Source: Planctomycetota bacterium
GTDB taxonomy: Bacteria; Planctomycetota; JAJSAM01; JAJVHW01
Reading direction: 5' to 3'
DNA: 64,000 bases
NCBI GenBank assembly: GCA_965248445.1
Contig: CBDFJG010000003.1
Coordinates: forward strand, 128,001-192,000
The notes beneath the pieces were generated by a model that ran no database searches, was not told the DNA's origin, and worked only from the letters and a program-made list of their open reading frames with translations. Below are positions 1-60,888 of this stretch, one piece after another. Each line of letters starts with the position of its first letter. Position 1 is the stretch's first letter. A program made the position numbers and the translations under genes.

Positions 1-414
1 GCGAACGAGACCTCGCCCCTCGCGCGCGCCCGTTCCGATTCCGATACCGATACCGATGATTCCCCCCAACCCCCCGCCGGGGGGAATGGGTTCGCTGCGC
101 TGGCTCCGGCCGCAGCTCGGGACATCGTGCTCCGCTGGGCCAAGCGGGACTCGAAGGGCAGACCCACGGTCCACACCGAGCGAGCCAAGGGCTACCTCCG
201 CGACGGCGTCGAGAACCGACCGAACACCGATTGGCGGATGCGCCTCGAGTGGATCGCCGAGCGCGACCCGAGCGGCTTCGACCACGCGATGCGAGCGCAT
301 CGGAAGAGCTACAGACCACCACCACGGGAGACAGATCGAGGAGTGATTTCAGCATCAAGCCGCAGCGGTACCGCGACGAGGTCATGGGCCTCACGTTCGA
401 CTTCAAGGTCGTAA
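1..414 (+). CDS. C-terminal part of a putative phage replication initiator (5'-partial)
   Basis: Frame 1 is open from base 1; ARARSDSDTDTDDSPQPP linker is typical of phage replication-initiator proteins. Confidence 0.45.
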   Translation, partial: ANETSPLARARSDSDTDTDDSPQPPAGGNGFAALAPAAARDIVLRWAKRDSKGRPTVHTERAKGYLRDGVENRPNTDWRMRLEWIAERDPSGFDHAMRAHRKSYRPPPRETDRGVISASSRSGTATRSWASRSTSRS

Positions 415-622
415 ATGGGCGCCCGGCGATGCAGGTCTGGCGGCACGCCGAGGGGTTGCTGCAGGTCGGCGGAGGCGCTCGTGACGTGGGCTGGTCAGAG
501 GACGGAAGCGAGGTCACCGGCACCGGCATGGCACTCGTCCCGCACCGACCGATGTCACCGATGGCCCCTCCTGACGGCGTCCCCGAGGCGACGGCCGACC
601 TTGACACTACGGAGACAGACCG

Positions 623-1003
623 ATGAAGCACGGACACTTCGAAGAGCACTGGACCGACGACCAAGACCGCCCCGCCGGCGGCGTGAGCAGCGGCCAAGGG
701 TTCACGATCTCGTGGCAGAACGGGCCGCCCGGGAGGCATGTGCCGCTCTGCAAGCCCCCGGCGACGCCGACGAGCGCGGACTCATACTGCGACCCGCTGT
801 GCATGCGCCAGGAGCCGAACGGCGCGTTCGTCGAGGACGTGATCGCGGCCGTCGTCGGGCGCATCGAGTTCTATCAAGCGTCCGAGTTCGCGTGCGGCGA
901 GAACGAGATCGCGCTCGCTCATCTCAGGGCGGCCGCGCGAGAACTCAACGAGCGCACAAAGGACCGCGAGACGCGCAGCGTCGAAGGGACGCACGAGCAG
1001 TGA
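623..1003 (+). CDS. Tad1/Acb2-hairpin family anti-defence nucleotide sponge with a Cys/Pro-rich insertion
   Basis: ISWQNGP...NGAFVEDVIAAVVGRIEFYQASEFACGENEIALAHL...NERTKDRETRSVEGT matches the Tad1 pattern FQxG...G...D...RL..FQ...F...EN..AL.H......N.R..DR..R.V.GT; ATGA-coupled to the upstream ORF. Confidence 0.75.
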   Translation: MKHGHFEEHWTDDQDRPAGGVSSGQGFTISWQNGPPGRHVPLCKPPATPTSADSYCDPLCMRQEPNGAFVEDVIAAVVGRIEFYQASEFACGENEIALAHLRAAARELNERTKDRETRSVEGTHEQ

Positions 1004-1308
1004 CGCTCACTGACGTTCTCCCGTGGTGCGTCACCGTGTTCGTGGCCGCCCACGCGATGGTCTGGTGGCGAGTCTCGAAGAAGTGGGAGCACGCCGCAAA
1101 CCGCTGGCAGGAGACGTGCGACCGGTGGCGCGCGCTTGCGGAGCGCATCCGGCGAGAGGCCGTTGCGCTGGAAGCGGTGGCGCGAAGAGCCGAAGTGAAT
1201 TGCTCATGCGAGCGCCGATACAAGGACGCTCACGAGTGCATGAACGCGAGGCCGGACCGCATTCGCACGGACGGCGTGCCGTGCCTCTGCCGCTACCGAG
1301 CGGCGTAA
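1000..1308 (+). CDS. Phage membrane-anchored hypothetical protein with a Cys-rich tail
   Basis: GTGA overlap with the upstream stop; N-terminal hydrophobic segment, coiled region, CxC...C...CxC. Confidence 0.55.
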   Translation: MTLTDVLPWCVTVFVAAHAMVWWRVSKKWEHAANRWQETCDRWRALAERIRREAVALEAVARRAEVNCSCERRYKDAHECMNARPDRIRTDGVPCLCRYRAA

Positions 1309-1323
1309 CGGGGAGCGCACGCC

Positions 1324-1689
1324 GTGAAGAACGTCAAGTGCACGCTACTCCGCGACAAGAACCCCTGCCGCTTCCGCGCCCGATGGCGCCCCGTCGTCTT
1401 CCTGCTCGTCGACGACGACGACACAGAGACGAACGCCGTCTCGCTCGACAAGCCGACGTGCGGGTGGCACTGCAACCGCGCAACCCTCGACGACGTGCTG
1501 AACGAGGACGAGTGGGACGACATCGCCGAGGAGGTGCTGCTCGCCGGCGGGCGGAGGATCAGCAAGGAGAGCAGCCACGTGCAGTTCCTGCGGCTCGACG
1601 ACAAGATCGATCCGATCGGCGAGAAGTACAATGACGACGACGAGAAGAAGTCGCGGATCGTGGTCGCGCGGCCGTCGCCGACGTGCTGA
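1324..1689 (+). CDS. Phage hypothetical protein
   Basis: GGAG upstream; coding-like composition. Confidence 0.6.
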   Translation: MKNVKCTLLRDKNPCRFRARWRPVVFLLVDDDDTETNAVSLDKPTCGWHCNRATLDDVLNEDEWDDIAEEVLLAGGRRISKESSHVQFLRLDDKIDPIGEKYNDDDEKKSRIVVARPSPTC

Positions 1690-1743
1690 TGCACCGGCTG
1701 TTGGCCCGTGCCCTCAGTGAATTGAGGGAGTAGGCTCCGCAGG

Positions 1744-2115
1744 ATGACCGACCGCGAACTCGACGAACTGGTCACGGAGCACGTCACGGACGGCGAGGGT
1801 GCGCCGCTCCATCTGCACGGGAACTACCCCGACGACATCGCTGCCGCCTGGTGCGTCGTCGAGAAGATGGAGCACGACGGCGAAAGTTTCCACTTGATCG
1901 GCGCCCGGTTCGGAGATGCGTTCGTCGCCTACTTCGGCCTCAACCCTGAGCACATCGCACGGAAGTTCTGGGAGCGCGACGGGGTGCACATCGACGACAC
2001 CGCGGACCAATTGCGCAACGAGGGACACTCACTCGCTGTCGAGTCCCTCAAGCGAGCCCCCCGCGCAATCTGCCTCGCCGCGCTCAAGGCGAGGGGCGTC
2101 GAGGTGCCAGCATGA
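1744..2115 (+). CDS. Phage ABA-sandwich (BC1872-like) domain protein
   Basis: RELDELVTEHV...Y..DIAAAWCVVEKM...APRAICLAALKA motif set. Confidence 0.7.
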   Translation: MTDRELDELVTEHVTDGEGAPLHLHGNYPDDIAAAWCVVEKMEHDGESFHLIGARFGDAFVAYFGLNPEHIARKFWERDGVHIDDTADQLRNEGHSLAVESLKRAPRAICLAALKARGVEVPA

Positions 2116-2747
2116 AGGTCACGGTGGGAACGCTGACATGTGATCACTGCCGTGGTGCAATTGAAAGGCTGCATGACGGTGTCTTGTCGTGGCCGGTCGG
2201 GGACCAACTCCGGTTGCCGGCGGGGCCACAGTGCGGGATCGTCCACCACAACTCGCTGACCGGGAACGCGCTGCTCGGCTGCCACGAACAGTACGACCGC
2301 GAGCACTATCGGACCCGTGGCGCATGGGTCCAGCTCGACGCGCCGAGCGTGATCCCACCAGACGATTGGTGCGCCGAGTTCGGCCAGTTCATCTCCGAGA
2401 TGGTGGTCGGCGGGCTACCACACGTGGAGGCGCTTGCTGTGTGTGTCCGCGTCCTCGTATCCGGGCTTGTCCCCTCTACGAGAGCTCCCGGATCCGACGC
2501 CTGGTCGACTCGCGGCTCGGCACCGACGCGCGCTCCGTCCACTCCTCCAGAGACCCCGCAGGCGCCTTCTCCCGTCGCCACACCAGCACTTCACCGGACG
2601 CCGCGATCTTCCGAGAACTCAACCCATCCGCGACGAGCGCCAGCAGTTTCGCGTCGGTCTCCTCGTCCCACCGCAGCGGTGTCCGGCCGATCTGCGACCC
2701 ACGAGCGCGCGCCGCTTCCATCCCGGACCGCGTCCGCTCGACGATGA
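2112..2747 (+). CDS. Phage hypothetical CxxC protein; the portion after ~2475 is probably read-through into the antisense recombinase
   Basis: ATGA overlap; LTCDHC N-terminus; low-complexity tail overlaps 2476-2747 of the minus-strand gene. Confidence 0.45.
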   Translation: MKVTVGTLTCDHCRGAIERLHDGVLSWPVGDQLRLPAGPQCGIVHHNSLTGNALLGCHEQYDREHYRTRGAWVQLDAPSVIPPDDWCAEFGQFISEMVVGGLPHVEALAVCVRVLVSGLVPSTRAPGSDAWSTRGSAPTRAPSTPPETPQAPSPVATPALHRTPRSSENSTHPRRAPAVSRRSPRPTAAVSGRSATHERAPLPSRTASARR

Positions 2748-3177
2748 TCTCTCGCTCGAGCTCAGCGATTGCGGCCAACAACTGCGCCTGGAACCGTCCG
2801 AACGGACTCGAGTAGTCCAGCACCATCCCCGACTTCCCGATGTGCACCTGGACGCCCAGCTCGCACAACTCGTGAAGCCGCGCCACCACGCCCGGCAGCG
2901 ACCGACCGAGCCGAGACATCTCCCGCACCCAGAGCGCCGCCACACCGCCGGCCCGCGCGTCCGCCATGATCCCTTCGAGCACCGGCCGCTTCGCAGCCAC
3001 GCCCGAGATGCCTGCCTCCTCGCGTACGTCCAGCGGTAGACCCTTCACGCGAGCCCACCCCACGGCGGCGCGGCGCTGGTGGTCGAGATCCTGCTCGTCC
3101 GTTGAGCACCGCAGAAGGGCGACAGCGACGGGGGACGCCGGAGCGCCCCCCTGGTTCGTGGTCGGCTTGTCGGTCAT
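2476..3177 (-). CDS. Small serine recombinase (resolvase/invertase family)
   Basis: LRCSTDEQ catalytic motif, E..ISG...RP, MSRLGRS, AELEREIIVERTRSGM..ARARG..IGR, C-terminal HTH; ATG at 3177 overlaps the upstream TGA. Confidence 0.92.
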   Translation of the reverse strand: MTDKPTTNQGGAPASPVAVALLRCSTDEQDLDHQRRAAVGWARVKGLPLDVREEAGISGVAAKRPVLEGIMADARAGGVAALWVREMSRLGRSLPGVVARLHELCELGVQVHIGKSGMVLDYSSPFGRFQAQLLAAIAELEREIIVERTRSGMEAARARGSQIGRTPLRWDEETDAKLLALVADGLSSRKIAASGEVLVWRREKAPAGSLEEWTERASVPSRESTRRRIRELS

Positions 3178-3506
3178 GCGCCTTCCGCCTTCGCGAGGGC
3201 CGCGCGGGCTGTGGCAATCGGAGACCCTTCGGGTTCCTCGAAGGGTTGCCCCGGCGCGAAGTCCCCGTAGATCGCGACCACGTCGCGCAGCGCCGCCAGT
3301 AGGTCCGGCGCCGCCGCCGCCACGGTGTACGGCATCGTGCGCCACGTCACGTTCCCGTCCGTCACGAGGTCGCAATGCGCGACCCACTCCCGCGCCTCCC
3401 TCTCGCTTGGGAAGTAGAGGGCGCTCCCGTCGGTGTCGCACAACGCGAGCCACGGCCCCGGAGTGTGCGCCGCCCTATCCACGGGACACCGCCTCAACGG
3501 GCTCAC
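3174..3506 (-). CDS. Phage hypothetical protein (HTPGPW...AAAPDLLAAL family); start uncertain
   Basis: HTPGPW, AAAPDLLAAL and ARAALAKAEG motifs common in phage early genes. Confidence 0.65.
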   Translation of the reverse strand: MSPLRRCPVDRAAHTPGPWLALCDTDGSALYFPSEREAREWVAHCDLVTDGNVTWRTMPYTVAAAAPDLLAALRDVVAIYGDFAPGQPFEEPEGSPIATARAALAKAEGA

Positions 3507-3981
3507 GTAGCGTCGAGAAGTGATCGACCATGTACTCGCGCCCCTTTGCGGCCGACAGGCCCGCGCCGAGCACGAACTGGTCCACGATACGCGCGTCGAG
3601 CGTTCGCCCCATCCGCGCCGTAACCGTCCACTGGTAGCCGAGGAACGTGTCGTCCTCGCCCTCCCGCGCCTCTGGGCGCACCACGTACAGGAACTCGATG
3701 TCGCCGTGCAGATCGTTGTACGGGAGACAGTCGAACCCGTCAGGGTCAGCCGCGCAGATCATCGCGGCGACCTTCTCCACGCGGCCGAGGTGGAACTGGT
3801 GGTCGAAGGGGCGGTCGCCCCAGTCGCGCGCCGCGTGCCGCTCCCGGGCCAAGTTCCACGCCTCGACCAGGCACGGCAGCATGTACTCGGGATAGCCGTC
3901 GCAGTGGTGGTACAGCGTGAACGCTCTCGTCTCGCCTCGGTAGTCCTTCGACTCGATGCGGACCTGACTTCTCGTGCTCAT
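3475..3981 (-). CDS. Phage hypothetical protein (MSTRS...YHHxDGYP family)
   Basis: GGAGG RBS before ATG 3981; YHHCDGYP and HGDIEFLY motifs. Confidence 0.75.
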   Translation of the reverse strand: MSTRSQVRIESKDYRGETRAFTLYHHCDGYPEYMLPCLVEAWNLARERHAARDWGDRPFDHQFHLGRVEKVAAMICAADPDGFDCLPYNDLHGDIEFLYVVRPEAREGEDDTFLGYQWTVTARMGRTLDARIVDQFVLGAGLSAAKGREYMVDHFSTLREPVEAVSRG

Positions 3982-4017
3982 CTCATCCTCCGGTAGTCGT
4001 GCTCCGTTGCCGGGAGC

Positions 4018-4150
4018 GAACTGGGTTAGCGAGGACGAGTCTGCCCGATCGTCAGGTGACAATCAAGGGCGCGTCGCGGGGTTTCGAGTCACCCCGTAGG
4101 GGTGGAAATCGTGAGGTGTGCCGGAACCGCCGCAGGTGCTAACCCAGTTC
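4018..4150. repeat. Perfect 13-bp inverted repeat with an internal hairpin
   Basis: GAACTGGGTTAGC (4018-4030) / GCTAACCCAGTTC (4138-4150); internal CACCCC-GTA-GGGGTG. Confidence 0.85.
4038..4066 (-). promoter_or_regulatory. Sigma70-like promoter for the minus-strand cassette
   Basis: TTGATT-N17-CAGACT on the minus strand, about 55 nt upstream of ATG 3981. Confidence 0.55.
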
Positions 4151-7209: not shown

Positions 7210-7606
7210 CGAGCGCCTGACGACACCGCAGCTCCGCAAGAAGGCTCTGGAGATCGGTGATCGTCTCCAGATCGCCATTCTCGACGCCGATCGCGAGGAG
7301 GAGATCGCGGCTCGCCTCCGTGCCGAGCGCGACCCGAACGCGGACCCGATGTCGAAGGAAGACTTGCGTCGCACGAGCCAGATCATGAAGCACGTGGAGA
7401 ACGCGGCTCGGTTGCTTCGTGCTGCGCACCGCGCGCGGCGAGCGGGTCGGCAGATCGACATCCTGCTCAGTCCAGCGAAGCGTGCAGCGAGACGCGCGCG
7501 TTCGAGGCCCAAGGTGACGCCCGACGATGCGGTGACGCTGCGACTCCTCGAGCGCAAGAGGCAGCGCGAAGCTGAGAACGCTGGCGATGGCGCGCGCGAA
7601 GGCTAA
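7196..7606 (+). CDS. Basic helical protein, candidate terminase small subunit
   Basis: GAGG RBS; overlaps the start of terL; function inferred from position only. Confidence 0.45.
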   Translation: MSQSDERLTTPQLRKKALEIGDRLQIAILDADREEEIAARLRAERDPNADPMSKEDLRRTSQIMKHVENAARLLRAAHRARRAGRQIDILLSPAKRAARRARSRPKVTPDDAVTLRLLERKRQREAENAGDGAREG

Positions 7607-9458
7607 GACCCGCGAGACGCCGGCGCCGCAGCTTTCCGACGAGGCGAGGGACGTTCACGAGGCACTCGCGTCGCGTGACCGCACGTCGATCAAGGAGTTC
7701 GTCGAGAGCTTCCCGGTGCTGCAGAAGCGCGTCGACAAGAAGACCGGAAGCGCAATGGTCTCGTTCACCGAGCGCGACGCGCAGGAGACCATCCGAGCCG
7801 CGATCGAGCAGTGCTGGGAGGAGGGTTTCGGCGCGAAGATCGTCTGCCTGAAGGACCGACAGCAAGGCATCAGCGAGATCATCTGCCGGATCTTCCTAGA
7901 GCGTCTGCTCCGCGGCGGCGGCGGCTTTGCGCGTGTCATCGCGCAGAAGGATCAGGCGACCGAGGGTCTCCTCGAGCGGATGCTCTTCATCCAGGAGAAG
8001 GTGCCGGACGCGACGATGACGGCGCTCGGTGCGACGCTCGACTGGAAGCGCAAGGACGAGGGCTTCGGGTTCACGTTCGCCGACGGCAACAGGAGCGCGA
8101 TCAAGATCCAGACGGCGCGCGACGACGCCTTCGGGCGCAGCGCCGCGGTGCGCTGGCTGTGGTTCTCCGAGTACCCGTGGTGGAAGACGGGGCACGACAA
8201 GCTCGACGGTCTGACCGAAGCGTGGGAGGACGCGCCCGGCAACATCTGCATCTTCGAGTTCACCGGCAAGACGTTCGACCACGGCTACGACGTGGTGGTG
8301 CGCGCGAAGGAGGGCCGGTCGGGGTTCCTGTTCATCTTCTTCTCGTGGCTCACCCACCCGGACAAGCGCCGGCGGTTCAGGAGCGAGAAGCAGCGCGCGG
8401 AGTTCGAGGAGTCGGTCGGCAAGATCGAGACGTACGGGATCGCCGAGGAGGTCATCCTCCAGGAAGAGCACAGCGCGACGCTGGAGCAACTGCACTGGCG
8501 GCGCGTGACGATCGACGGGCCGGGCTTCAACGGCGACATCGAGAAGTTCAAGCGCGAGCACCCGACGGTCTGGTCTGACGCATTCCTGGCTGAAGACACG
8601 CAGCTCTACAAGGTCGAGCTGCTCAAGCGGTGGCTGCCGCTCGGCGAGAAACTGCAGCGCACGTCGCCTCGCGGCGACTTCGACATGCGCGACGATCTCG
8701 TTGAGTTCCACAAGGATCGCCGCGGTCGCTGGCTCATCCTGGAAGAGCCGACGGAGGGCATCGTCTACGCATTCGGCGCCGACCCCGCGGCCGGCAAGCG
8801 CGTGCAGGCGGACGGGCGGCCGAAGGGTGATCTGTCGGTCATCCAGATCCGCGAGGTGCTCACGCGCAAGGTCGTCGCGATGTGCTCGGGGTACATCGAG
8901 CCGGACGAGTTCGGGCGTGAGGTCGTGCGTGGTTCGGCGTACTACGGCGAGGCGCGCGGCTACGTCGAGGCGAACAACCACGGGATTTCGGTCATCGACG
9001 AGATCGAGCGGCTCGAGAGGTCCCACATTCTGCTCGCGCGGCGGCGACCCGAGGTGACGGACGCGGGCAAGCGGTGGCATCGCGCGCCGGGCTTCCTGTC
9101 GACGAAGAACAGCAAGGTCTACGCGGTCGACCTGTCACGGCGGTGGGTGCGCAACCTTCAGCCCCCGCGTGAGGGCGAGCGCGGCGTGCTGCCTGCGTCG
9201 ACGATCATGCAGATGATGCGCTACAGCCGCTTGGGATCCCGTGGGCAGAGCATGGGCGCGACGGTCGGGCACGACGACGAAGTGTCGGCCGACTACCTGT
9301 GCCACGCGGCGATCGAGATGATCCTGCCGATGGTGGACACCATGTCAACGGTGCCGACTCGGCTGACGGTCGAGGAGCGGTACATCCTGCAGGGCGACAT
9401 CGAAGAACTGGCGAAGGGCGGGGGGTTCCCCGACCGCGACCTGGGAGCGGGGTACTGA
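7587..9458 (+). CDS. terL: Terminase large subunit
   Basis: LKDRQQGISE Walker A variant, WLWFSE Walker B, nuclease motifs FGADPAAG...DLS, VEANNHG, GHDDEV. Confidence 0.9.
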   Translation: MARAKAKTRETPAPQLSDEARDVHEALASRDRTSIKEFVESFPVLQKRVDKKTGSAMVSFTERDAQETIRAAIEQCWEEGFGAKIVCLKDRQQGISEIICRIFLERLLRGGGGFARVIAQKDQATEGLLERMLFIQEKVPDATMTALGATLDWKRKDEGFGFTFADGNRSAIKIQTARDDAFGRSAAVRWLWFSEYPWWKTGHDKLDGLTEAWEDAPGNICIFEFTGKTFDHGYDVVVRAKEGRSGFLFIFFSWLTHPDKRRRFRSEKQRAEFEESVGKIETYGIAEEVILQEEHSATLEQLHWRRVTIDGPGFNGDIEKFKREHPTVWSDAFLAEDTQLYKVELLKRWLPLGEKLQRTSPRGDFDMRDDLVEFHKDRRGRWLILEEPTEGIVYAFGADPAAGKRVQADGRPKGDLSVIQIREVLTRKVVAMCSGYIEPDEFGREVVRGSAYYGEARGYVEANNHGISVIDEIERLERSHILLARRRPEVTDAGKRWHRAPGFLSTKNSKVYAVDLSRRWVRNLQPPREGERGVLPASTIMQMMRYSRLGSRGQSMGATVGHDDEVSADYLCHAAIEMILPMVDTMSTVPTRLTVEERYILQGDIEELAKGGGFPDRDLGAGY

Positions 9459-10215: not shown

Positions 10216-10243
10216 TTGTGAGTGTCACCTCGGGATGTAAACT
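10216..10243 (+). promoter_or_regulatory. Candidate promoter for the portal/head genes
   Basis: TTGTGA-N16-TAAACT in an AT-rich intergenic patch; contains GTGTCACC. Confidence 0.45.
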
Positions 10244-10259
10244 CCCCGGCGTGGTACAG

Positions 10260-12398
10260 ATGACCAGCTCCCTGGCGGACGCCCGTCCAGAAAACGAGAC
10301 GGGGCGCAAGCAGCCAGTCGACCTGTTCGCGGCTCTAGCCGAGCCTGACGCCGACAAGCGCGCCGCCCATCTCGACGAGGTCGTGGGCCAGTGGGATCGG
10401 GCGATGGACCCGCAGCGCCGCGTCTGGATCGAGTGCGACGGCATGACGTACCACGACCAATTCGGTCGGTACGACTCCGTCGCGCGCTCCTGGGTCCCGC
10501 GCCGCAAGGCGCCCTCGACCAAGGTCACGAGGATGGAGATCAACCTCATCCTCTCCTTCGTCGAGCAGATCGTCGCGATCCACACCGCCGAGAAGCTGAA
10601 CCTCCGCGTGACCGCGTCGTCCTCAGAGGGCCGCGACGCCGCCGCCTCCCGCACCGCCGACAAGCTGCTCTGGCATCTGTGGGAGAAGCTCGACATGGAG
10701 CGGATCCGGCAGGAGGTCATCGCCGGGTCGACCGTCGTCGGGACGTGGTTCGTTCATCCGCAGTGGGATTCGTCGATCGGGCCGGAGGTCGAGCGCGTCG
10801 TCGCACGCGACGAGAACGGTCAGGAGTTCGAGCCCGAGAACCTGGAGGACATCCTCCGCGCGACCGAGATCGAGTTCGTCAAGGAGCGCGCCGGCGACGC
10901 GATCGTGGAGATCCTCACGGCGTACGAGTGCGGCTTCTCACCCGACACCGGGTCATCGGCTGGCCTCGCGATGTACGCCCGCCGCCAGCTCGCGCTCGGC
11001 GCGATGCAGCAGAACCCGCTGCTCGATCAGAAGAAGGTCAAGAACCTCGTCCCGTCGGAGACCACGGGGTTTGAGGGCGCCGAGTTCACGAACCGCCGCA
11101 AGGTGATGACGCCGCGCTCCGACGCGCCCGAGACGCACACCGACAGCTACACCGGCCGCCAGGGCGTCATCGTCACGGATCTCTACATCCGCGCGACGAC
11201 GGAGTACCCGCGCGGGCGCCGGCTTGTCTTCGCCGAGGGCTCGATGCTCTACGAGGGCGGCAACCCTCGCTACCACGACAACCCGGCCGCCGAGACGCCG
11301 CAGTGGCCGTTCCCGATCTTCCCGTTCAAGGACATCTCGGTCCCGGGCGTGGCGTGGGGACAGGGCAGCGTCGTGCGGCTCATCCCGCCGCAGAAGTCGG
11401 TGAACGGCAACTACTCCAAGGGGATGCACATCATCAAGAAGGTCGCGCACGCGACCCTCGTGCACCCCGCCGGGATCAAGGTCCCCAAGAGCGACGCGCC
11501 GGATCAGAAGATCGCGATTCACCCGTCGATGCCGGTCGACGTGGTGAAGTACCTGCAGAGCCCGCAGTTCCCGAACGAGCTGCCGCAGTTCATCAACATC
11601 GCCGTCGGCTTCATGGAGCGGATCGCCGGCGTCAACCCCTCGACGCAAGGCATCGCCCCGACGAAGGGCGCGAGCGGCAAGCTCACCGAGGCGCTGCAGG
11701 GGCAGGACATGCAGCGGCGTTCGCCGAAGCAGAACCTCTACACGCGGCAGCTCGCGCAAGTCATGGGCTACCTGCTCCAGCTCTTCCAGCGGCACGCCGA
11801 CACCGAGCGCACGGTGACGATCGTCGGAGAGAACGGGCGCGCTGACGTGCTCGCGTTCGACGAGGCGTTCATGGGCTCGAGCATCGACGTGCGCGTGTAC
11901 GACGACTTCGCGCGGCCCCGTGACCCTGCGCGCCGCATCCTCTACGCGCGCGGCATGGTCGACATGGGGCTCCTAAACCCCGCGACGAACCCGGACGATC
12001 GCGCCGTCATGCTGCAGTTGCTCGGCGGCGTGAGCGAGCTCGAGCGGTTCGAGGACTTCGCGCTGCGCAGCGACCGTGAGAAGCAGCGGCGCGAGAATCT
12101 GCGGCTCTACAAGGGCGAGCAGAGCATCCCGGACTTCTGGGAGAACGACGGCGATCACCTCGCGGTGCTGTTCACAGAAATGAACAGCGAGGAGTGGCGG
12201 ACTGCGACGACACCGCAGCCCGACGATTCACCCGAGGCGGCCGCGCAGAAGCAGGCGGTGCGCACCGCGTTCATCATGCACGCGCAGCACCACCTCAACC
12301 AGCAGCAGGGCAAGGCAGGACTGCAATCGCCCGACGGACCAGCGGCGGCCGCAGCTCCACAACCACAGTCGGCAGGACCGCCGGCGGCGGGAGTCTGA
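10260..12398 (+). CDS. Portal protein (P22/podovirus-like)
   Basis: ~710 aa after terL; INLI...V, WG.G.V..LIPPQK..N, G...SGK, EN..L...DG.HL..L, H...H portal motifs; start could be 10218. Confidence 0.85.
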   Translation: MTSSLADARPENETGRKQPVDLFAALAEPDADKRAAHLDEVVGQWDRAMDPQRRVWIECDGMTYHDQFGRYDSVARSWVPRRKAPSTKVTRMEINLILSFVEQIVAIHTAEKLNLRVTASSSEGRDAAASRTADKLLWHLWEKLDMERIRQEVIAGSTVVGTWFVHPQWDSSIGPEVERVVARDENGQEFEPENLEDILRATEIEFVKERAGDAIVEILTAYECGFSPDTGSSAGLAMYARRQLALGAMQQNPLLDQKKVKNLVPSETTGFEGAEFTNRRKVMTPRSDAPETHTDSYTGRQGVIVTDLYIRATTEYPRGRRLVFAEGSMLYEGGNPRYHDNPAAETPQWPFPIFPFKDISVPGVAWGQGSVVRLIPPQKSVNGNYSKGMHIIKKVAHATLVHPAGIKVPKSDAPDQKIAIHPSMPVDVVKYLQSPQFPNELPQFINIAVGFMERIAGVNPSTQGIAPTKGASGKLTEALQGQDMQRRSPKQNLYTRQLAQVMGYLLQLFQRHADTERTVTIVGENGRADVLAFDEAFMGSSIDVRVYDDFARPRDPARRILYARGMVDMGLLNPATNPDDRAVMLQLLGGVSELERFEDFALRSDREKQRRENLRLYKGEQSIPDFWENDGDHLAVLFTEMNSEEWRTATTPQPDDSPEAAAQKQAVRTAFIMHAQHHLNQQQGKAGLQSPDGPAAAAAPQPQSAGPPAAGV

Positions 12399-13665: not shown

Positions 13666-14934
13666 ATGGCAACCGCCAACCTGAGCGTCCATCAGAAGTC
13701 GCTCCGGTACTTCCACGGTCCGCGCATGGCGAAGGCGCTGGCGCAGAAGGTCTTTTTCCTGAAGACCAGCAAGGACCGTTCGAAGTACGTCCGCTTCGGT
13801 GGCCGGGACGCAACGATGCTGTTCCCGGTACACCACAAGCGCAACTGGGGCACCGCCGCCGGCACCGAGGCCGGTGGAACGGCGACCCCGCGCGCACCGG
13901 GATTCGACGAGTACAGCGTCGCGCTGGCCGAACTGCAGGTCTCGATGGAGATCAGCGATCGGCTCATCAAGGCGACGCGCGCTCGCCCGGATCTCTCCTA
14001 CGTCGGCAACGCCCTGACGTGGAACGTCAATCAGGTGTTCTCCACCGCAGAGAAGATGCTCGGCATCCAAATCTGGGGCGACGGCACCGGCGCACTCGCA
14101 CAGACCGACACGGGCGCGGGGGCGATCACGGCCACGCAGTTCTACGTCGACAACCCCGGCATCGAGCGACTCGAGGTCGGGATGTTCATCGAGGCGTACG
14201 ACCCGGCGAACAAGAGTTCGGGCGGCACGAACCAGCTCACCGCGAACTCCAACGCGGCGCAGGAAATCACCGACATCGACCACAAGAACAACCGCGTCAC
14301 GATCGCCGACACGACGGGGCTGTCGGACAACGACTGGATCATCCCGACCGGTCACTACGCCAAGACCAACCTGAACGGGCTGGACTACCACGTCGACGAC
14401 GGCACGGTGGCGGCCACGTACCAGGGCCTCACGCGGTCGGGCAAGCACTACACGCAGGCGTGGGTCGAGACGACTTCGGGCTCTCTCACCGAGACGAAGA
14501 TGTACGTCCCGCTGCGTCGACTGCAGAAGTTCGGGATCAAGGAGAAGAGTCCGTACATCCTGACCGACCCCGAGTCGCAGGAGACGCTCGCGCTCGCGGT
14601 CCTCAACCGCCAGCGGTTCAAGGGAACCACCACGAAGGGCGGCTTCTCGGCCGTCTCCTTCGAGACGCCCTACGGCACGAGTGAGATCGTCTCCGACCCG
14701 CTCGCCGACCCGTTCAAGATGCGCTTCCTGTGCATGGAGGACTTCGGTTGGGGCTGGATGGGGCGCAAGGGCGGCCAGTGGTTCGACGAAGACGGGAACA
14801 TGCTCGAGAAGAAGGTGGATTCCACCTCCGGCACGGGCTACGCGACCGCCTACGTGGCGACCTGGCTCATGTACTGCCAGCTCATTTGCGAGAACCCGCT
14901 GAACCAGGCGCTCTTCTCCGGCTACACGGCCTGA
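13666..14934 (+). CDS. Major capsid protein (HK97 fold, with a beta-rich insertion domain)
   Basis: 422 aa after the scaffold; GDGTG.LA, NGL, TYQGLTRS, GFSAV.F, C-terminal L.CENP motifs; strong codon bias. Confidence 0.85.
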   Translation: MATANLSVHQKSLRYFHGPRMAKALAQKVFFLKTSKDRSKYVRFGGRDATMLFPVHHKRNWGTAAGTEAGGTATPRAPGFDEYSVALAELQVSMEISDRLIKATRARPDLSYVGNALTWNVNQVFSTAEKMLGIQIWGDGTGALAQTDTGAGAITATQFYVDNPGIERLEVGMFIEAYDPANKSSGGTNQLTANSNAAQEITDIDHKNNRVTIADTTGLSDNDWIIPTGHYAKTNLNGLDYHVDDGTVAATYQGLTRSGKHYTQAWVETTSGSLTETKMYVPLRRLQKFGIKEKSPYILTDPESQETLALAVLNRQRFKGTTTKGGFSAVSFETPYGTSEIVSDPLADPFKMRFLCMEDFGWGWMGRKGGQWFDEDGNMLEKKVDSTSGTGYATAYVATWLMYCQLICENPLNQALFSGYTA

Positions 14935-24941: not shown

Positions 24942-25053
24942 ACGGGTCAGGCGCTCGACCAGATCACGCAGCTCATCGGTGCCCACATCCGATTCATCGA
25001 CCGAACGGAAAGCGATCTGGATCCGAGCTCAGAACCAAGGGCTGAACGGGTAC
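24942..25053 (-). mobile_element. Isolated 112-bp left end of IS66-A, inverted
   Basis: Reverse complement of 27884-27995, including the terminal GTACCCGTTCAG. Confidence 0.95.
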
Positions 25054-25132: not shown

Positions 25133-25777
25133 ATGCCGGTGAGCAAGCCGGGCGGCCGGTGGGAGTGGACCCGTGGCGAGGACGAGATTGTCCAGGCGCT
25201 GCGGGTTGCGGGCGTGTCTGCGGACCGTACAGCGGATGCGATTGGGTGCGAGCCGCGGTCACTGATTGCGCGGTACGGGGACGTGTTCGGTGCGCCGCGG
25301 ACGGAGACGCACGAGCGGGCATTCACGGAGAACGAGGTGAAGACGGCGGTCGAGATGAAGGCGCACGGGATCGCGGAGCGTCACATCGCGAAGGTGCTGG
25401 AGACGTCGATCACGACGTTGCGGAAGCACCTCGGGGACAAGCTGGCGGTGGCGGAGGCGAACTTGGTGCACGAGGTCGCGCGCGCGCTGGCCGTGAAGGC
25501 GAAGAAGGGCGACACGAAGGCGATGATGTTCTTCCTGGAGAAGCGCGGCGGTGCTGCGTGGCGGGACCGTACGCACGTGGTGCACGAGGGCGTCGGTGTG
25601 CTGGTGCCGCCCGGGATGCTGACGGCGGACGCGTGGATTGCGTCGCACAGCCCGACGGCGCTCGAGGGCGGCGGTGCACGGCCGATTCTCGACGTGGAGC
25701 CGGACGCTGTCCGCGACGGGGAGGATGCGCCAGAGGAGGTGGCGCGCCTCCCCCGCCGGGAAGTCGACGCTGCGTGA
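25133..25777 (+). CDS. terS: Terminase small subunit
   Basis: Two HTH-like repeats; AKKGDTKAMMFFLEKRGG..WRDR motif; directly upstream of terL. Confidence 0.75.
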   Translation: MPVSKPGGRWEWTRGEDEIVQALRVAGVSADRTADAIGCEPRSLIARYGDVFGAPRTETHERAFTENEVKTAVEMKAHGIAERHIAKVLETSITTLRKHLGDKLAVAEANLVHEVARALAVKAKKGDTKAMMFFLEKRGGAAWRDRTHVVHEGVGVLVPPGMLTADAWIASHSPTALEGGGARPILDVEPDAVRDGEDAPEEVARLPRREVDAA

Positions 25778-27387
25778 GCACGGCGGCTCTTCCGGGCGTG
25801 GGTGTGGACGAGCAGCGCGAGCTCGAGGACGGTGTGCGTGCCGCGCGTGCTTCGGAGTTGTCGCGTGCGTCGAGGTCGGTGAACGGCGCGAAGGTGATCT
25901 GGGCGCCGTTGCCCGGTAGCCAGGAAGCGTTCCTGCAGTGCCCGCTGTTCGAGGTCCTGTACCACGGGAGCCGGGGCGGCGGGAAGACGGACTGCCTGCT
26001 GATGTCGTACGCGCAGCACGTCGGACGCGGGCATGGGCCGGCGTGGCGCGGGATCTTGTTCCGTCAGTCGCACCCGCAGCTGGCGGACGTGATCGCGAAG
26101 TCGCAGGAGTGGTTTCCGCGGATCTTCCCCGGTGCGCACTTCAACATGAGCCGCACGGAGTGGAAGTTCCCCGACGGCGAGATGCTGCTGTTCCGGCACA
26201 TCGCGCAGCCGGCGGACTACTGGTGCGTGCCGGACGGCGACGTCCTGACCGAGCGCGGCTGGGCGCCGATCGAGGACGTGCGTGTCGGCGAGCGGGCGCT
26301 CACATGCGACCTCGAGACGATGCGCGTCGAGCTGCTTCCGGTCCGGGAACGGCCGGCCTTCGACTACGACGGTGACATCGTCGAGTACGAGGGCCGCGGA
26401 CGGTTCATGTCGTTCACGCCGAACCATCGGCTCGTGACCGCCGATCGAGAGCTCGTCCCGTACTGCGAACTGCCGCGCGAGGCGTCGATCTGCCGTGGCG
26501 GGTGGTCCGTGCAGCGCGAGGGGATCGAGTCGTTCGATATCCCGGCCGTCGAGACGCGGATCCCGTGCGGACAGCCGACGTCGATGAGCGGCGACGACTA
26601 CTGCGAGTTCATGGGCTGGTATCTCGCAGAGGGGTCGACCGTCAAGACGCCCGATCGCACCGGCAGGCTGTCGAACATCATCAGCATCGCGCAGAAGAAG
26701 ACGGACCGCCGCGCGAAGATCGCCGCACTGCTGGATCGGGTTGGGATCGGCCACAGGGCGACGGACACACAGTTCGTCTGGTCTTCGAAGCGCTGGGCGA
26801 CCTGGCTCCGGGAGTACGGTGGGTTCCAGCAGAAGTTCATCCCGCGCAACATCATCGAGTCCGCGAGCGCCGCGCAACTTCGGCAGTTCCTCGACGCGTT
26901 CATCGACGGAGACGGGACGCGCCAGGGCGATCGCCTATACGCGTTCACGTCGTCGCCGGGACTGCGCGACGGAATCTGCGAGGTCGGTGTCCTGCTCGGG
27001 TACGCGCCTCACGTGCTCGTGCGCCATCGTGACGAACGCCAGGTCTCGTACCAGATCTCCCTGAACCCACGATCGAGCCATCGCCTCTACACCGACAACC
27101 GCGAGCGGAACATCCGCGAGAACAGCGCGAAGACGCAGGTGACCCGTCGTCACCACAAGGGTCGCGTGTACTGCCTGAGCTTCGCGCGGAACCACACGTT
27201 CTTCATCCGCCAACGCGGGTCGGTCTGGCTGTCGGGAAACTCGTATCACGGCCATGAGCTGCCGTGGATCGGGTTCGAGGAGCTGACGAACTGGAACACC
27301 GACGAGTGCTACACGCGGATGTTCTCTTGCAGCCGGTCGTCGCGGAGCGGCATGCCGCGGATGGTGCGGGCGACCACGAACCCGTGA
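25774..27387 (+). pseudogene. terL: Terminase large subunit, ATPase domain only, intein-containing
   Basis: PGSQEAFL, YHGSRGGGKT Walker A, IGFEELT Walker B, RATTNP followed immediately by TGA; nuclease domain absent. Confidence 0.88.
26224..27240 (+). mobile_element. Intein with a LAGLIDADG homing endonuclease (339 aa)
   Basis: C1 CVPDGDVLTERGW, block B TPNHR, GWYLAEGS and AFIDGDG motifs, VYCL...HTF...GN end, +1 Ser. Confidence 0.92.
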
Positions 27388-27883: not shown

Positions 27884-29415
27884 GTACCCGTTCAGCCCTT
27901 GGTTCTGAGCTCGGATCCAGATCGCTTTCCGTTCGGTCGATGAATCGGATGTGGGCACCGATGAGCTGCGTGATCTGGTCGAGCGCCTGACCCGTCGTCT
28001 GGACGCTCGGGACGAGACGATTGCCGAGCAGGCGGAGGTGATCGAGCGGCAGGCGGCACGGATCGACGATCTCGAGAGCCGTCTTCGCCGGGACTCCCGC
28101 ACCTCCTCGCGCCCACCGTCCTCGGATCCGTCGTGGTCCAAGAAGCGGCGGCGGCGCAAGCCGCCGTCGGACAAGCGCCAGGGTGCGCAGCCCGGCCACA
28201 AAGGGGCGACGCGCAAGCTCGTGGACGAGTCCGAGGTCGATGGCGTAGAGGACCACCGCCCGCGCGAGTGCAGCGCGTGTGGGAGCGACGTGCTCGTCCC
28301 GATCGATCGCGCCCCGACACGCCAGCAGGTCTTCGAGGTCCCGCCACGGCTGATCCAGGTGACCGAGCACCGGTTGCACCGGGCACGGTGCACGGACTGT
28401 GGCGCCACGTCCACTGCCTCGCTGCCAAGCGGTGTGACGGCGAGTCCCTTCGGCCCGCGACTCTGTGCGCTCACCGCGGCTCTGGTCGGCGTCTTCCGCC
28501 TGTCGCGGCGCGAGACCAGTCGTCTGTTGCGTGACGTCATCGGCGTCTCGATGTCACCGGGCACGGTCAGTGCGATCGAGGAGCGGGTGTCGGGAGCCAT
28601 CTCCTCAGCGCACATCGAGGCCCTCGGGGCCGTACGCACGAGCAGCGTCGCCTATGTAGACGAGACACCGTGGTCGCGTCGTGGCACGCTGCATTGGCTG
28701 TGGAGCGCGGTCTGTGAGCACGCCACGGTCCATCGTATCGATCGGCGCAGGAGCGCCAAGGCCATGCGGCGACTCGTGGGCAAGCGCTTCAGGGGCGTCC
28801 TCGTGACCGACCGTATGGGCGCTTACGACCAGCATCCCACCGAGCGCCGCCAGATCTGCTGGGCGCATCTCGAGAGGGACTTTCGAGCGCTGGCCGAGGG
28901 CTCGCGCGGCGGCCGGCGCTTCGGCAAGCAGGCCGTGCGTCTCGCCCAGGCTGTCATGCGAGCTCAGCGTCACTTCGGCGAGCACGGGGACCGCGACCGC
29001 ATGCGGCGTGAGCTGCGTCTCACATGGGACCGACTCCTGACGCTGCTCGTGCGCGGCGCAGACAGCAAGCACCGCCGAGTACGCGGAACGACTCGGCATC
29101 TGCTCGACCGAGCGGAGGCTCTGTGGACCTTCGCCGACGTCCCTGGCGTCTCCCCGACGAACAACGCCGCTGAGCGCGCGGTGCGCAAGCCGGTCCTGTG
29201 GAGACGCGCAACGCACGGAAGTCAGAGCGAGCGCGGACTCCGCTTCGTCGAGCGCATCCTGACCGTCACCGCCACGCTCCGCCAGCGTGGCGAGAGCGTC
29301 TTCGATTACCTCGCAGACGTCAGCGCGGCACTCGCGCACAACCGCTCGCCGCCGGCTCTCGTCGCGCTCCCGATCACGCGCTGAGGCCGCGGATCGTCAT
29401 ACCCTGAACGGGTAC
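27884..29415 (+). mobile_element. IS66-family element A (single-ORF, ISBst12-like), 1532 bp
   Basis: 12-bp terminal IR GTACCCGTTCAG; flanks CATGAGCC / CTTGCAGG do not match. Confidence 0.92.
27951..29384 (+). CDS. tnpC: IS66-family transposase
   Basis: DSRTSSRPPSSD, GAQPGH, CxxC x2, VDET, TDR, QICWAHLER, PTNNAAERAVR. Confidence 0.95.
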   Translation: MGTDELRDLVERLTRRLDARDETIAEQAEVIERQAARIDDLESRLRRDSRTSSRPPSSDPSWSKKRRRRKPPSDKRQGAQPGHKGATRKLVDESEVDGVEDHRPRECSACGSDVLVPIDRAPTRQQVFEVPPRLIQVTEHRLHRARCTDCGATSTASLPSGVTASPFGPRLCALTAALVGVFRLSRRETSRLLRDVIGVSMSPGTVSAIEERVSGAISSAHIEALGAVRTSSVAYVDETPWSRRGTLHWLWSAVCEHATVHRIDRRRSAKAMRRLVGKRFRGVLVTDRMGAYDQHPTERRQICWAHLERDFRALAEGSRGGRRFGKQAVRLAQAVMRAQRHFGEHGDRDRMRRELRLTWDRLLTLLVRGADSKHRRVRGTTRHLLDRAEALWTFADVPGVSPTNNAAERAVRKPVLWRRATHGSQSERGLRFVERILTVTATLRQRGESVFDYLADVSAALAHNRSPPALVALPITR

Positions 29416-34844: not shown

Positions 34845-36344
34845 GTAACCGTTCACCCCTTCGTCGCGAGCCAGGATCCAGATCGTTCGGCCATCGGTCG
34901 ATCAAGAGGTTGTGGGCGAGCGGCAGGACGAGGATCTGCGGGCGATGGTCGAGGGCCTTCTGGCCTGGATCGAGGAGCTGGAGCGTCGCGAAGCGAAGCA
35001 TCTGCGCCGCATCGACGAGCTCGAGTCGCGTCTGAAGCGTGACTCCCGCAACAGCTCGAGGCCTCCGTCGTCGGACCCGGCGTGGTCCAAGCGCCGTCGC
35101 GGCCGAAGGCCGCGTAGCGGTCGCAAGCAGGGCGGACAGCCGGGCCATGAGGGCACGGCGCGCGAGCTGGTGGATCCGTCCAACGTCGATGAGACCAAGG
35201 AGCACCGTCCCGACCTCTGCGACGCGTGCGGACACGACGATCTCGAGCAGGGCATCGGCGATCCGTACCGGCACCAGGTGACGGTGCTCCCGCGCGTGCT
35301 CGTCACGGTGCGGGAGCACCGGCTGCACAAGGCGCGGTGCCGGCGCTGTCGTGCGGTCACGACGGCGGTCCTGCCCGATGGCGTGCCGACCGGGGCCTTC
35401 GGTCCGCGGCTGACCACACTTGCCGGCGCGCTGCGCGGCGTGTACCGCGTGAGCGTGCGGGAGACGCAGCGGCTGCTCGGTGAGATTTTCGGTGTGAAGA
35501 TGTCGCTGGGCAAGATCAGCGACTGTGAGCGTCGGCTCAGTGACGCTCTGCACTCGTCGTACCTCGAAGCCCTCGGGGCAGTCCGCACGTCGCTGCGAGC
35601 CAACGTGGACGAGACGTCGTGGAAGGAACGGGGCCGGGTGTGCTGGCTGTGGGCGGCGGAGAGCGAGCACGCCACAGCCTTCGGGATCGATCGCCGCCGC
35701 AGTGCCAAGGCGAAAGGGCGGCTGATCGGGCGGCGCTTCGGTGGCACGGTGATCAGCGACCGGATGGGTGCCTACGAGTCACACCCACTTGCCCGCCGCC
35801 AGCTCTGCTGGGCGCACATCGAGCGCGCCTTCCGTGCGCTGGCCGAAGGCCCGCGAGGACATCGCCGCTTCGGCAACAAGGGCGTCATGATCGCGCAGTC
35901 GGTCATGCGCAGCTACCGGCTCTTCGGTGAGCACGGCGCCCGTGACCGGCTGCAAGGCGAAGCCGCTGTGCTGCGCGGACGGCTCGAGCGACTGATCGCG
36001 AACGACGACTCGGCTCTGGCCAACCATCTGCGCCCCCGCGTGGTCGCCCTCTTCACCTATGCGCGGACCCAGGACGTGAGTCCGACGAACAACGCCGCCG
36101 AGCGCGCGGTCCGCAAAGCGGTGCTCTGGCGCAAGGGCTCCTTCGGAAGCCAGTCCGCTCGCGGACTCCGCTTCGCCGAGCGCGTGTTGACCGCCGCGGC
36201 CACGCTGCGACGCCGTGGCGACCAAGTCTTCGACTTCCTCGCCGACTCGGTCGCCGCGCACCTCACCGGCGCCGACCCGCCCGTCATGGTCCCGCTGCCC
36301 GTCGCACGCTGAGGCTCACACGCTGTCAAGGGGTGAACGGTTAC
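34845..36344 (+). mobile_element. IS66-family element B (single-ORF), 1500 bp
   Basis: Perfect 17-bp IR GTAACCGTTCACCCCTT; flanks GAATCGCG / CCCCGAGG do not match. Confidence 0.93.
34912..36312 (+). CDS. tnpC: IS66-family transposase
   Basis: NSSRPPSSD, GGQPGH, VDET, SDR, QLCWAH, PTNNAAERAVR. Confidence 0.95.
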   Translation: MGERQDEDLRAMVEGLLAWIEELERREAKHLRRIDELESRLKRDSRNSSRPPSSDPAWSKRRRGRRPRSGRKQGGQPGHEGTARELVDPSNVDETKEHRPDLCDACGHDDLEQGIGDPYRHQVTVLPRVLVTVREHRLHKARCRRCRAVTTAVLPDGVPTGAFGPRLTTLAGALRGVYRVSVRETQRLLGEIFGVKMSLGKISDCERRLSDALHSSYLEALGAVRTSLRANVDETSWKERGRVCWLWAAESEHATAFGIDRRRSAKAKGRLIGRRFGGTVISDRMGAYESHPLARRQLCWAHIERAFRALAEGPRGHRRFGNKGVMIAQSVMRSYRLFGEHGARDRLQGEAAVLRGRLERLIANDDSALANHLRPRVVALFTYARTQDVSPTNNAAERAVRKAVLWRKGSFGSQSARGLRFAERVLTAAATLRRRGDQVFDFLADSVAAHLTGADPPVMVPLPVAR

Positions 36345-60300: not shown

Positions 60301-60831
60301 CTGCACAACCTGGGACTGGTGCTGCGACAGGAGCGCGATTTCGCGCGCGCGCAGGAGCGTCTTCAGGGCTGCCTGTCGGTGTGCGAGGAGATCGGGGACC
60401 GGCACCTGGCGGCGCAGACGCAACTCGCTCTGGGATCCCTCCAGGCCGCCACGGGAGATGGGTCCAGGGGTCGAGTGGCGCTCGAGGCGGCGCGAGATGT
60501 GGCGGCAGAGAACGGGTTCCCCGATTACGAGACGCTCGCGCGCTGCGAGCTGGCATGTCTCCCCGGCAGCGATGCCGCGGACGCGCTCGCGGCCTTCGCG
60601 GAGAACGGCGATCGACTCGACGTGCAGCGGCGCCGCGAGGCGCGCTGGCTGCTCTTCCGCGCGACCGGCGACCGCGCGCATCTCGCAGAGGCCAAGCGCC
60701 TGCTGGACGAGTGGGTGGCGCACGTCGACGAGGAGACGCGGCAGACGATGCTCACGAACCTCCGCCTGAACCGCGAGATCATGGCGGCGTGGGACGACGG
60801 GGAGAACGATGGGGTGAGTGACGGGATTTGA
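57316..60831 (+). CDS. Ser/Thr kinase - P-loop ATPase (AAA_16-like) - TPR protein; start codon uncertain
   Basis: LGSGGMGKVY, ALK, HRDMKPEN, DLG, YAAPE; GRENEL, GEAGIGKS, IDDLHF, GNPFF; 40-aa TPRs. Confidence 0.9.
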   Translation: METTTLGPYRIESELGSGGMGKVYAAVVDGRVPGLDEGTRVALKVVHAHLLETPGFFKRFLREAEIGKTVRHKNVVRTYDCDATGGQHFIAMEYVEGQTLRELLNELRRVPEELCRHIGHEVACGLAAIHAAGAIHRDMKPENVLITEEHVVKVMDLGVARLADDAFRLSKTGTFIGSLHYAAPESFQDDGAQIDGRVDLHALGLVLYELASGSNPYLAEDLPRTIQKVLGEEPRKLGDVNPQLSPFFEEVVHTLLEKDREKRFSSADELARLLADGEDSAWWHRRASVIRTVTKRPLRRIRIPRETAVYGRENELTRLRALYDAARCGEGNVVLIAGEAGIGKSRLVDELIGRMQRDGEDINFLFGSYPPGGAATAAGGISTAYREQFGEEGCADYLTTTPVLVPAFDALLRGEPPPEGRERLTKDSLQTCFVNATRALGTERPTVVLIDDLHFAPEEGRALFTSLAMAVAGHRVLLIGTTRPGVADDWVSGLTRLDQTSQLALQRLGPKDLVQLLKDTLESEQLARDLSAQIAEKSDGNPFFVFEILQGLREGQFITQDDDGTWVGTKVVGDIQIPSSVLDLVKARVAGLSEEERDLLDVACCWGFEFDPGLIGDVLGLGRIPTLKRFGQLERAHRLVRAAGRTMVFDHHQVQEALYGSLLEQLREEYHAALAAALETRTNAADQDPETLDGALCVDLCEHFLEGARGESALRYLPAAQRHLARGYLHAQVVSLTERALAVPGLLGGSERAKTLLLLAHALDLMGRRARQEECAREAEQLAEEAGDDEVRETAARALGVVLGGTARFAGAEAALRRALEIAVARGDRKTEAAAMGNLGSVFGSLGRLHEARRYMERHLALSRESGYRRGEAIAMGNLGNVLLSLGKLPEAREHMERQLALSREIGYRQGEANATGSLGKVFTALGRLPEAQEQMERHLALSRAIADRHGEAVAVGNLGNIFATLGRLSDARGHFERYIAISREIGHRRGEGVALHNLGLVLRQERDFARAQERLQGCLSVCEEIGDRHLAAQTQLALGSLQAATGDGSRGRVALEAARDVAAENGFPDYETLARCELACLPGSDAADALAAFAENGDRLDVQRRREARWLLFRATGDRAHLAEAKRLLDEWVAHVDEETRQTMLTNLRLNREIMAAWDDGENDGVSDGI
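59790..60400 (+). repeat. 120-bp period TPR-coding repeats, about 5 copies
   Basis: Related blocks (G)N/S-L-G...LG.L.EA...ER at 59821, 59941, 60061, 60181, 60301. Confidence 0.85.
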
Positions 60832-60888
60832 ACCCGCGACCTCCTATGCCACAGACAGGCGCTCTAACCAAGCTGAGCTACACCCACC
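60810..60888 (-). tRNA. tRNA-His(GUG)
   Basis: Full cloverleaf with G-1, anticodon arm CCTGT-CTGTGGC-ATAGG, T-loop TTCAAAT, C73 and encoded CCA. Confidence 0.96.

Follow-up and report, generated by a model that had tools for sequence, protein, structure and literature searches.

A prophage-encoded Tad1-family protein of a Planctomycetota bacterium with a predicted metal-binding cassette in its lid loop

Tad1 sponges are well studied, and one more member of the family is in itself ordinary; sponges have also been used previously as bait for new immune signals. No Cys/His cassette of the kind described below is known to us from CmTad1. The structurally resolved CbTad1 and CmTad1 (PDB 7uav, 7uaw, 8smd, 8kbb-8kbh) share a sheet-plus-hairpin fold, and the likewise helical-hairpin sponge Acb2 is grouped with them under the Pfam name Acb2/Tad1 hairpin. 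According to the accessible parts of bioRxiv 2023.11.15.567273, CbTad1 and CmTad1 are hexamers with two cA3 sites, and a CmTad1 figure legend mentions a Zn ion, the ligands of which are not named. The loop leading into the helical hairpin is described to move by about 3.7 Å in sealing gcADPR and to be open on 2',3'-cGAMP (accessible parts of bioRxiv 2022.05.03.490397 and bioRxiv 2023.11.15.567273).

The window analysed here comprises 64,000 nucleotides from a Planctomycetota genome and contains, at 623..1003 on the plus strand, a gene for a 126-residue protein that is almost certainly a member of the Tad1 family. A phmmer search against PDB sequences matched residues 65-125 to CmTad1 (E 9e-8) and CbTad1 (E 2e-5), a profile built from 17 sequences improved the Tad1 match to E 2e-11, and tblastn aligned SBSphiJ7 Tad1 with 50.8 % identity over residues 66-126. 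Sequence similarity to characterised Tad1 proteins is confined to the C-terminal half, the N-terminal half matching by fold: the AlphaFold2 model calculated from 120 sequences (pLDDT 87.6) consists of three strands and two helices and thereby displays the features of the Tad1 fold, i.e. an N-terminal antiparallel sheet and two C-terminal helices. The predicted three-stranded sheet (residues 6-11, 17-24 and 27-32; 638..718, plus strand) aligns with that of Tad1. Among the Foldseek matches listed, all 12 rows with E < 0.001 represent Tad1, the next row following at E 1.3. A second structural aligner placed Tad1 at Z 8.5 (rmsd 2.6-3.0 Å, 94-95 residues aligned), which is modest considering that unrelated helical hairpins attain Z 7.4 with some 55 residues aligned. 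The protein also matches PHROG 2428 (E 7e-17) and carries a precomputed PF24729.3 label (Acb2/Tad1 hairpin) without score; local Pfam and NCBIfam scans, the former with version.2 of PF24729, yielded no match for the protein. Acb2 chains were retrieved neither by sequence search nor among the fold matches listed, Tad1 ranking first throughout, and the protein differs from Acb2 in possessing the β-sheet of Tad1. The Tad1-like character originally predicted from the hairpin motifs is thus borne out by sequence, profile and fold, and in the proposed comparison with Tad1 and Acb2 the former was found by all three approaches, and the latter was absent from the matches listed.

The open reading frame starts with ATG, is preceded by a Shine-Dalgarno-like GGAG at 611..614 (plus strand; 8 nt before the start codon, function presumed from sequence) and overlaps both neighbouring genes by four bases (ATGA, 623-626; GTGA, 1000-1003). 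A scan of contig C3 at 123.8-128.7 kb, ahead of the gene, revealed no promoter. Positions 1-3486 of the window are matched without differences by a 4,891-nt contig in three of three sequencing runs; as these runs represent one sample, which is probably the source itself, an assembly slip is ruled out and independent support is not given. The frame translates exactly as first quoted, including the C-terminal motif (residues 66-123) and the loop.

The closest relatives form the WQxGP/NGAFVE clade, which occurs mostly as a 106-residue form (e.g., Vibrio phage VP-1, AWY10120; PHROG 2428, PF24729). Its members share a core of about 70-78 % identity with the present protein and differ in that most of them have a loop of 10 residues. 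The family is large, with 1,990 proteins in one search and 3,878 representatives in another, and 109 relatives were found in viral contigs. This clade is already catalogued among Tad1 homologues in a 2025 preprint: in Table S1 of PMC12393519, the NGAFVE motif occurs 196 times (at least 28 rows on the Tad1 sheet among the matches listed), and the loop start GPLGRH is found in 3 rows. The motif is absent from the table of tested proteins (Table S2). The same preprint, as far as accessible, reports the cloning of 20 Tad1 homologues, of which Table S2 displays at least 18 rows plus 2 controls; 12 of the 18 listed homologues were plaque-validated against type I Thoeris, and 6 were inactive. Four of the active homologues (rows 49, 50, 65 and 67) do not possess the residues corresponding to R90/T97 of CbTad1, and the inactive homologue in row 56 keeps the same C-terminal pocket residues. 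The characterised Tad1 of Bacillus phage SBSphiJ7 shares with the present protein the Q-GP start of the lid as well as the NG, F-C-EN and R-T--R---VEGTH motifs. It differs in that both the hexamer patch and the R/T pair of the trinucleotide site are kept, in its longer N-terminus and in a short lid loop without Cys/His cassette.

The helical hairpin and tail (815..997, plus strand) harbour the pocket residues R80, Y84, F89, N94, R111, R115, G122 and H124, as judged from alignment and conservation. Their counterparts in CbTad1 (offset +2) are R78, F82, F87, N92, R109, R113, G120 and N122, all eight being identical or conservatively replaced; the roles of these residues are taken from the accessible parts of bioRxiv 2022.05.03.490397 and bioRxiv 2023.11.15.567273. 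Conservation was assessed in 192 relatives, of which 82 have the four-ligand loop described below and 110 a short one; this set remained of 200 proteins upon exclusion of 5 with other long loops and 3 tandem proteins. R80, Y84, F89 and R111 are present in all 192, N94, R115 and G122 in 191 and H124 in 184, and G34, which matches CbTad1 G55, is likewise invariant (192/192). The position of CbTad1 R57 is occupied by Pro in the present protein, by Leu in its relatives and, aligned by eye, by Val in the active SBSphiJ7 Tad1. At the position of CbTad1 H29, the alignment (also read by eye) has no His, so that H29 and R57 of CbTad1 have no match here; H9, conserved on the adjacent strand, might substitute for H29. 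Binding of gcADPR is predicted with good probability.

Further information on pocket architecture came from tandem relatives, in which the Tad1 domain is duplicated (8 of 347 proteins). In all eight, which are probably kin and not eight separate events, the pocket motifs are divided between the repeats, the first repeat having only the α1-α2 motif left and the lid and tail motifs alone persisting in the second. A complementary split of this kind is what a pocket assembled from two chains, as in Tad1, would lead one to expect. The single-chain proteins (P0183, P0188, P0198, P0201, P0213, P0231, P0246 and P0299) represent natural one-pocket pseudo-dimers; a single-sequence model of P0183 (pLDDT 45) was unusable. 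Retention of one composite pocket in the tandem proteins, together with the coincidence of conserved positions and ligand-contacting residues, also bears on the notion that the Tad1 fold of this clade serves another purpose, e.g. a structural role in the virion. A distant relative is entered as gp184 in PDB 8y6v (E 0.002), and relatives in some phage records are annotated as structural proteins; set against the conserved pocket, such a role appears extremely improbable.

The second ligand site of the solved Tad1 proteins is probably not retained. CbTad1 R90 and T97, which contact the trinucleotide phosphates, are replaced by G92 and A99, and the hexamer interface residues E100/E101/M104/W105/R108 by R102/A103/R106/E107/E110. 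These positions vary freely across the clade (of the 82 loop-bearing proteins, 4 have Arg where CbTad1 has R90); since R and T are both kept by 2 of 10 loop-bearing representatives and in 15 of 85 parsed loci, their loss is not tied to the cassette. According to the accessible parts of bioRxiv 2023.11.15.567273, losing these residues abolishes cA3 binding or leaves dimers, gcADPR binding being maintained, and such substitutions occur in 6 % of the Tad1 set studied there, which makes the loss of the trinucleotide site a known kind of variation. With R90, T97, M104 and W105 all replaced, the present protein is predicted to be a dimer that, in fair likelihood, does not bind cA3, and its ligand range is predicted to be narrower than that of the solved Tad1 proteins. 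Of the Tad1 ligands first proposed, gcADPR and the CBASS cyclic nucleotides, the C-terminal pocket residues for gcADPR and dinucleotides are therefore kept, and those for cA3 are lost along with the hexamer interface, here and in most of the clade.

The β4-α1 lid loop (residues 33-67; 719..823, plus strand) has conserved anchors (GP-GR and R-EPNG) and carries P36; its designation as lid follows from the literature and the fold alignment. Behind G34-P35-P36 (CbTad1 G55-A56-R57), a cassette of the pattern H39-x3-C43-x12-C56-x3-C60 is inserted (737..802, plus strand), predicted to be a zinc knuckle from its sequence pattern and from the β-bridge that the model places between residues 44 and 55. 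The one His and three Cys noted originally are thus confirmed, and the segment has 22 residues (H39-C60) instead of about 24; relative to the common 106-residue form, the insertion adds a net 20 residues, the stretch from WQNGP to NG having 30 residues instead of 10. The insertion lies in that very loop which closes over the ligand. Among 87 long loops from 200 pooled proteins, the pattern [H/C]-x-C-x-[C/H]-x-C was present in 82, as compared to a mean of 1.7 and a maximum of 6 in 200 shuffles, the pool being enriched for the pattern by the profile built from loop-bearing proteins. The two arms have 3 residues in 69 and 79 of the 82 proteins, respectively, and between them lies a middle of 4 to 18 residues. 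In the Cys/Pro-rich loop described originally, it is the four ligands that are conserved, the Pro-rich middle being the variable part.

The ligands are arranged as H-C-C-C in 72, C-C-H-C in 7 and H-C-H-C in 3 proteins, C-C-C-C being absent (Fisher p 3e-8, kinship ignored). The 7 His/Cys-swapped proteins have cores of 55-69 % identity, and 7 changes are needed on a weak tree. In the model, the loop reaches a pLDDT of 79-85, and the bridged residues 44 and 55 adjoin C43 and C56. Four Cys/His residues at fixed spacing, His/Cys swaps and a middle that alone is variable fit a zinc knuckle, and the loop probably binds a metal, most plausibly zinc, as far as can be told from these sequence features; the original suggestion of a metal-binding loop has thereby gained in likelihood. 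Three Cys and one His can also hold a [2Fe-2S] cluster, as in NEET proteins, and two Cys are the least variable of the ligands here, so iron, an iron-sulfur cluster or a disulfide operating as redox or metal switch was considered. Two short arms flanking a free middle are the usual layout of zinc knuckles, and the protein sequence has no signal peptide. A disulfide would account neither for the conserved His and the His/Cys swap nor for an odd count of Cys, whereas a four-coordinate metal site allows for a His that is kept and yet moved. A redox-active or iron-bearing loop is accordingly regarded as very unlikely, and the zinc knuckle is preferred. A search of the ESM Atlas with the loop alone (residues 33-68) returned no usable match and carries no weight.

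The cassette is shared by dozens of relatives and hence not private to the present protein. The 120 best matches comprised 102 short and 18 long loops (query included); in sets chosen by core motifs, the cassette was found in 4 of 100 loci (a set retaining 80 of 109 viral matches) and in 10 of 150 representatives (including 18 unparsed for the loop), amounting to about 4-7 % of the clade. The closest core to that of the present protein (78 % identity) belongs to a short-loop protein, and the cassette is kept, patchily spread, across cores that are only 55-80 % identical. On the tree, 10 gains or losses are counted, but starred branches force only 1, and the AU test (p 0.041) covered 32 of 197 rows, chosen once the first tree had been seen. 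Repeated gain or loss of the cassette is suggested by these data.

Other inserts occur at the same position of the lid, some with two Cys and two His and many without Cys, indicating that the site tolerates insertions; it looks like a hot spot for metal-type cassettes. Further Cys/His-rich lid inserts were observed in P0205, P0217, P0219, P0283, P0317, P0346, P0235, P0240, P0228, P0267 and L011:5953-6381, among them a C..H..H..C type and longer inserts containing 4-5 Cys. Other architectures among the relatives comprise a Tad1 domain fused to Clp N-terminal repeats (P0287) and fusions to other domains (P0271 and P0316); the latter two were considered as Tad1-Tad2 fusions and rejected, no Tad2 match being found in Pfam or PDB.

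Taken together, the protein is viewed, with moderate confidence, as a dimeric sponge for gcADPR, possibly also for cyclic dinucleotides, with an extra loop folded round one metal ion, probably zinc. Two chains would interlock as in Tad1, each pocket being formed by the lid loop and tail of one chain and the α1-α2 loop of the other. The signal would be enclosed unchanged, so that the NADase effector is not activated. As R90/T97 and the M/W patch are missing, the dimers would neither assemble into hexamers nor bind cA3. At the tip of the lid, the cassette would fold into a small outward-pointing knuckle with two arms of 3 residues and a middle of variable length, and would most likely stiffen the lid or add surface rather than rebuild the pocket. 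The outward orientation is inferred from the loop anchors, which, together with all eight pocket positions, are the same in the 82 loop-bearing and the 110 short proteins. That the core ligand is unchanged by the loop seems somewhat more probable than an even chance.

A different effect of the cassette would be to retune the pocket by holding the lid elsewhere, such that the bound signal changes. The insert is located in the loop that moves onto gcADPR and is open on 2',3'-cGAMP, and published work attributes divergent dinucleotide spectra to differences in loops (accessible parts of bioRxiv 2023.11.15.567273 and bioRxiv 2022.05.03.490397); moreover, the cassette persists across such divergent cores despite its patchy spread. 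It would be conceivable, though hardly probable, that Panoptes decoy dinucleotides are excluded or a new TIR product is admitted; type I Panoptes is triggered by co-expression of Tad1 according to the accessible part of a review (PMC13712596). The identity of anchors and pocket positions in both forms, the variable length of the cassette middle and the many unrelated Cys-free inserts at the same place argue against retuning, which is considered unlikely. With equal reservation, a swappable metal knuckle grafted by phages onto the Tad1 lid, and repeatedly gained and lost in the course of an arms race, may be proposed to retune or gate the sponge so that it takes a different signal or refuses the decoy nucleotides that allow hosts to sense sponges. 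The sponge with unaltered core ligand is thus the reading retained here.

The gene is located inside a prophage remnant of roughly 31 kb (contig C3, about 124.3-155.4 kb) that is bounded by IS66 copies, one at the right edge (27884..29415, plus strand) and another at the left edge outside the window. The prophage location, as proposed from the outset, is borne out by genes for a terminase large subunit-like protein (7587..9458, plus strand; weak PHROG match, E 0.017), a portal protein (10218..12398, plus strand; phrog_156, E 1.4e-18, and PF16510) and a weakly matching major capsid protein-like product (13666..14934, plus strand; phrog_9953, E 1e-4, and PF17236, E 5e-5). The neighbouring genes give no indication of the wider anti-defence cluster that had been envisaged: 20 of 23 have no relative in 100 other Tad1 loci, the exceptions being DUF5131 (in 2 loci), a resolvase (in 1) and the terminase (in 6). 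The near neighbours match only PF18066, DUF5131, a resolvase and PHROGs of unknown function, and no anti-defence family was matched in Pfam, PHROG and NCBIfam-type scans, the libraries of which contain few such families. A conserved neighbourhood was also not found for the loop-bearing genes.

Several other features of the region were recorded. A block on the opposite strand (2476-4062, minus strand), encoding a serine resolvase/invertase and two unknown proteins, interrupts the plus-strand run, and pieces related to it are present on contig C4 near 1.95 Mb. An invertible cassette considered for a 39-nt branch at 3457-3495 is better explained by the related prophage remnant on contig C4. Related remnants without Tad1 were detected at C4 1.94-1.955 Mb, C3 1.678-1.683 Mb and C2 0.348-0.353 Mb; the pieces on C3 and C2 have identical match statistics and may be duplicates. 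At the right end, following an IS end at 24942-25053, a second terminase pair (25133-27387) consists of a small subunit-like gene and one for a large subunit with a weak internal LAGLIDADG match, and is possibly a piece of another prophage. The IS66-family elements at 27884-29415 and 34912-36312 each have dozens of near-identical copies in the genome, reflecting an unusually heavy IS load. A tRNA-His gene (60810-60887, minus strand) is located far outside the prophage remnant.

The gene is the only one for Tad1 in the genome, and no Tad1 was found in 100 related genomes. In the host assembly (92 % complete), no match to SMODS, ThsB TIR, TIR_2, CAP12 TIR or SIR2_2 and no TIR or CD-NTase marker was detected; host searches for SAVED and STALD were likewise blank and are uninformative, as no control genome yielded a match either. 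A PSCyt1 search bearing on the host lineage was blank as well. Of 16 genomes of the host order, 4 carry ThsB-type TIR genes (3 of 7 in the family), and SMODS is present in none of 17 genomes; on this slender basis, a TIR signal would be the likelier target in this lineage. The ThsB-type TIR genes in host relatives were found at L105, L106, L107 (genome G006, with five matches) and L108 (genome G005), one in G005 adjoining a PDC-M50A match.

With the target system not found in the host, with IS66 copies at both edges of the remnant and an IS end inside it, and with no integrase except for the small resolvase, this copy could be a decaying gene of a dead prophage that no longer works. Within the lid anchor, moreover, it has a unique Leu-to-Pro exchange (P36; Leu in 186 of 192 relatives), and a Pro at this place of the lid, within an IS-bounded remnant, may mean that the copy is impaired. 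The open frame, start signals, gene coupling, eight pocket residues and four cassette ligands are all intact, though, and complete loss of function is deemed rather doubtful.

No description of a metal loop in Tad1 was found in the literature searched, including the accessible parts of PMC13712596 and bioRxiv 2025.06.06.658234, and supplements to the structure papers might show one; the four-ligand lid cassette is apparently undescribed before. The protein belongs to a large clade for which no tested member was found and in which the trinucleotide site is mostly lost, and its cassette is situated on the only loop that is known to shift over the bound ligand. The contribution of lid loops to sponge specificity could be tested cleanly with natural pairs differing in the presence of the cassette, and matched pairs with cores of 77 % identity make the idea of retuning through the lid directly testable.
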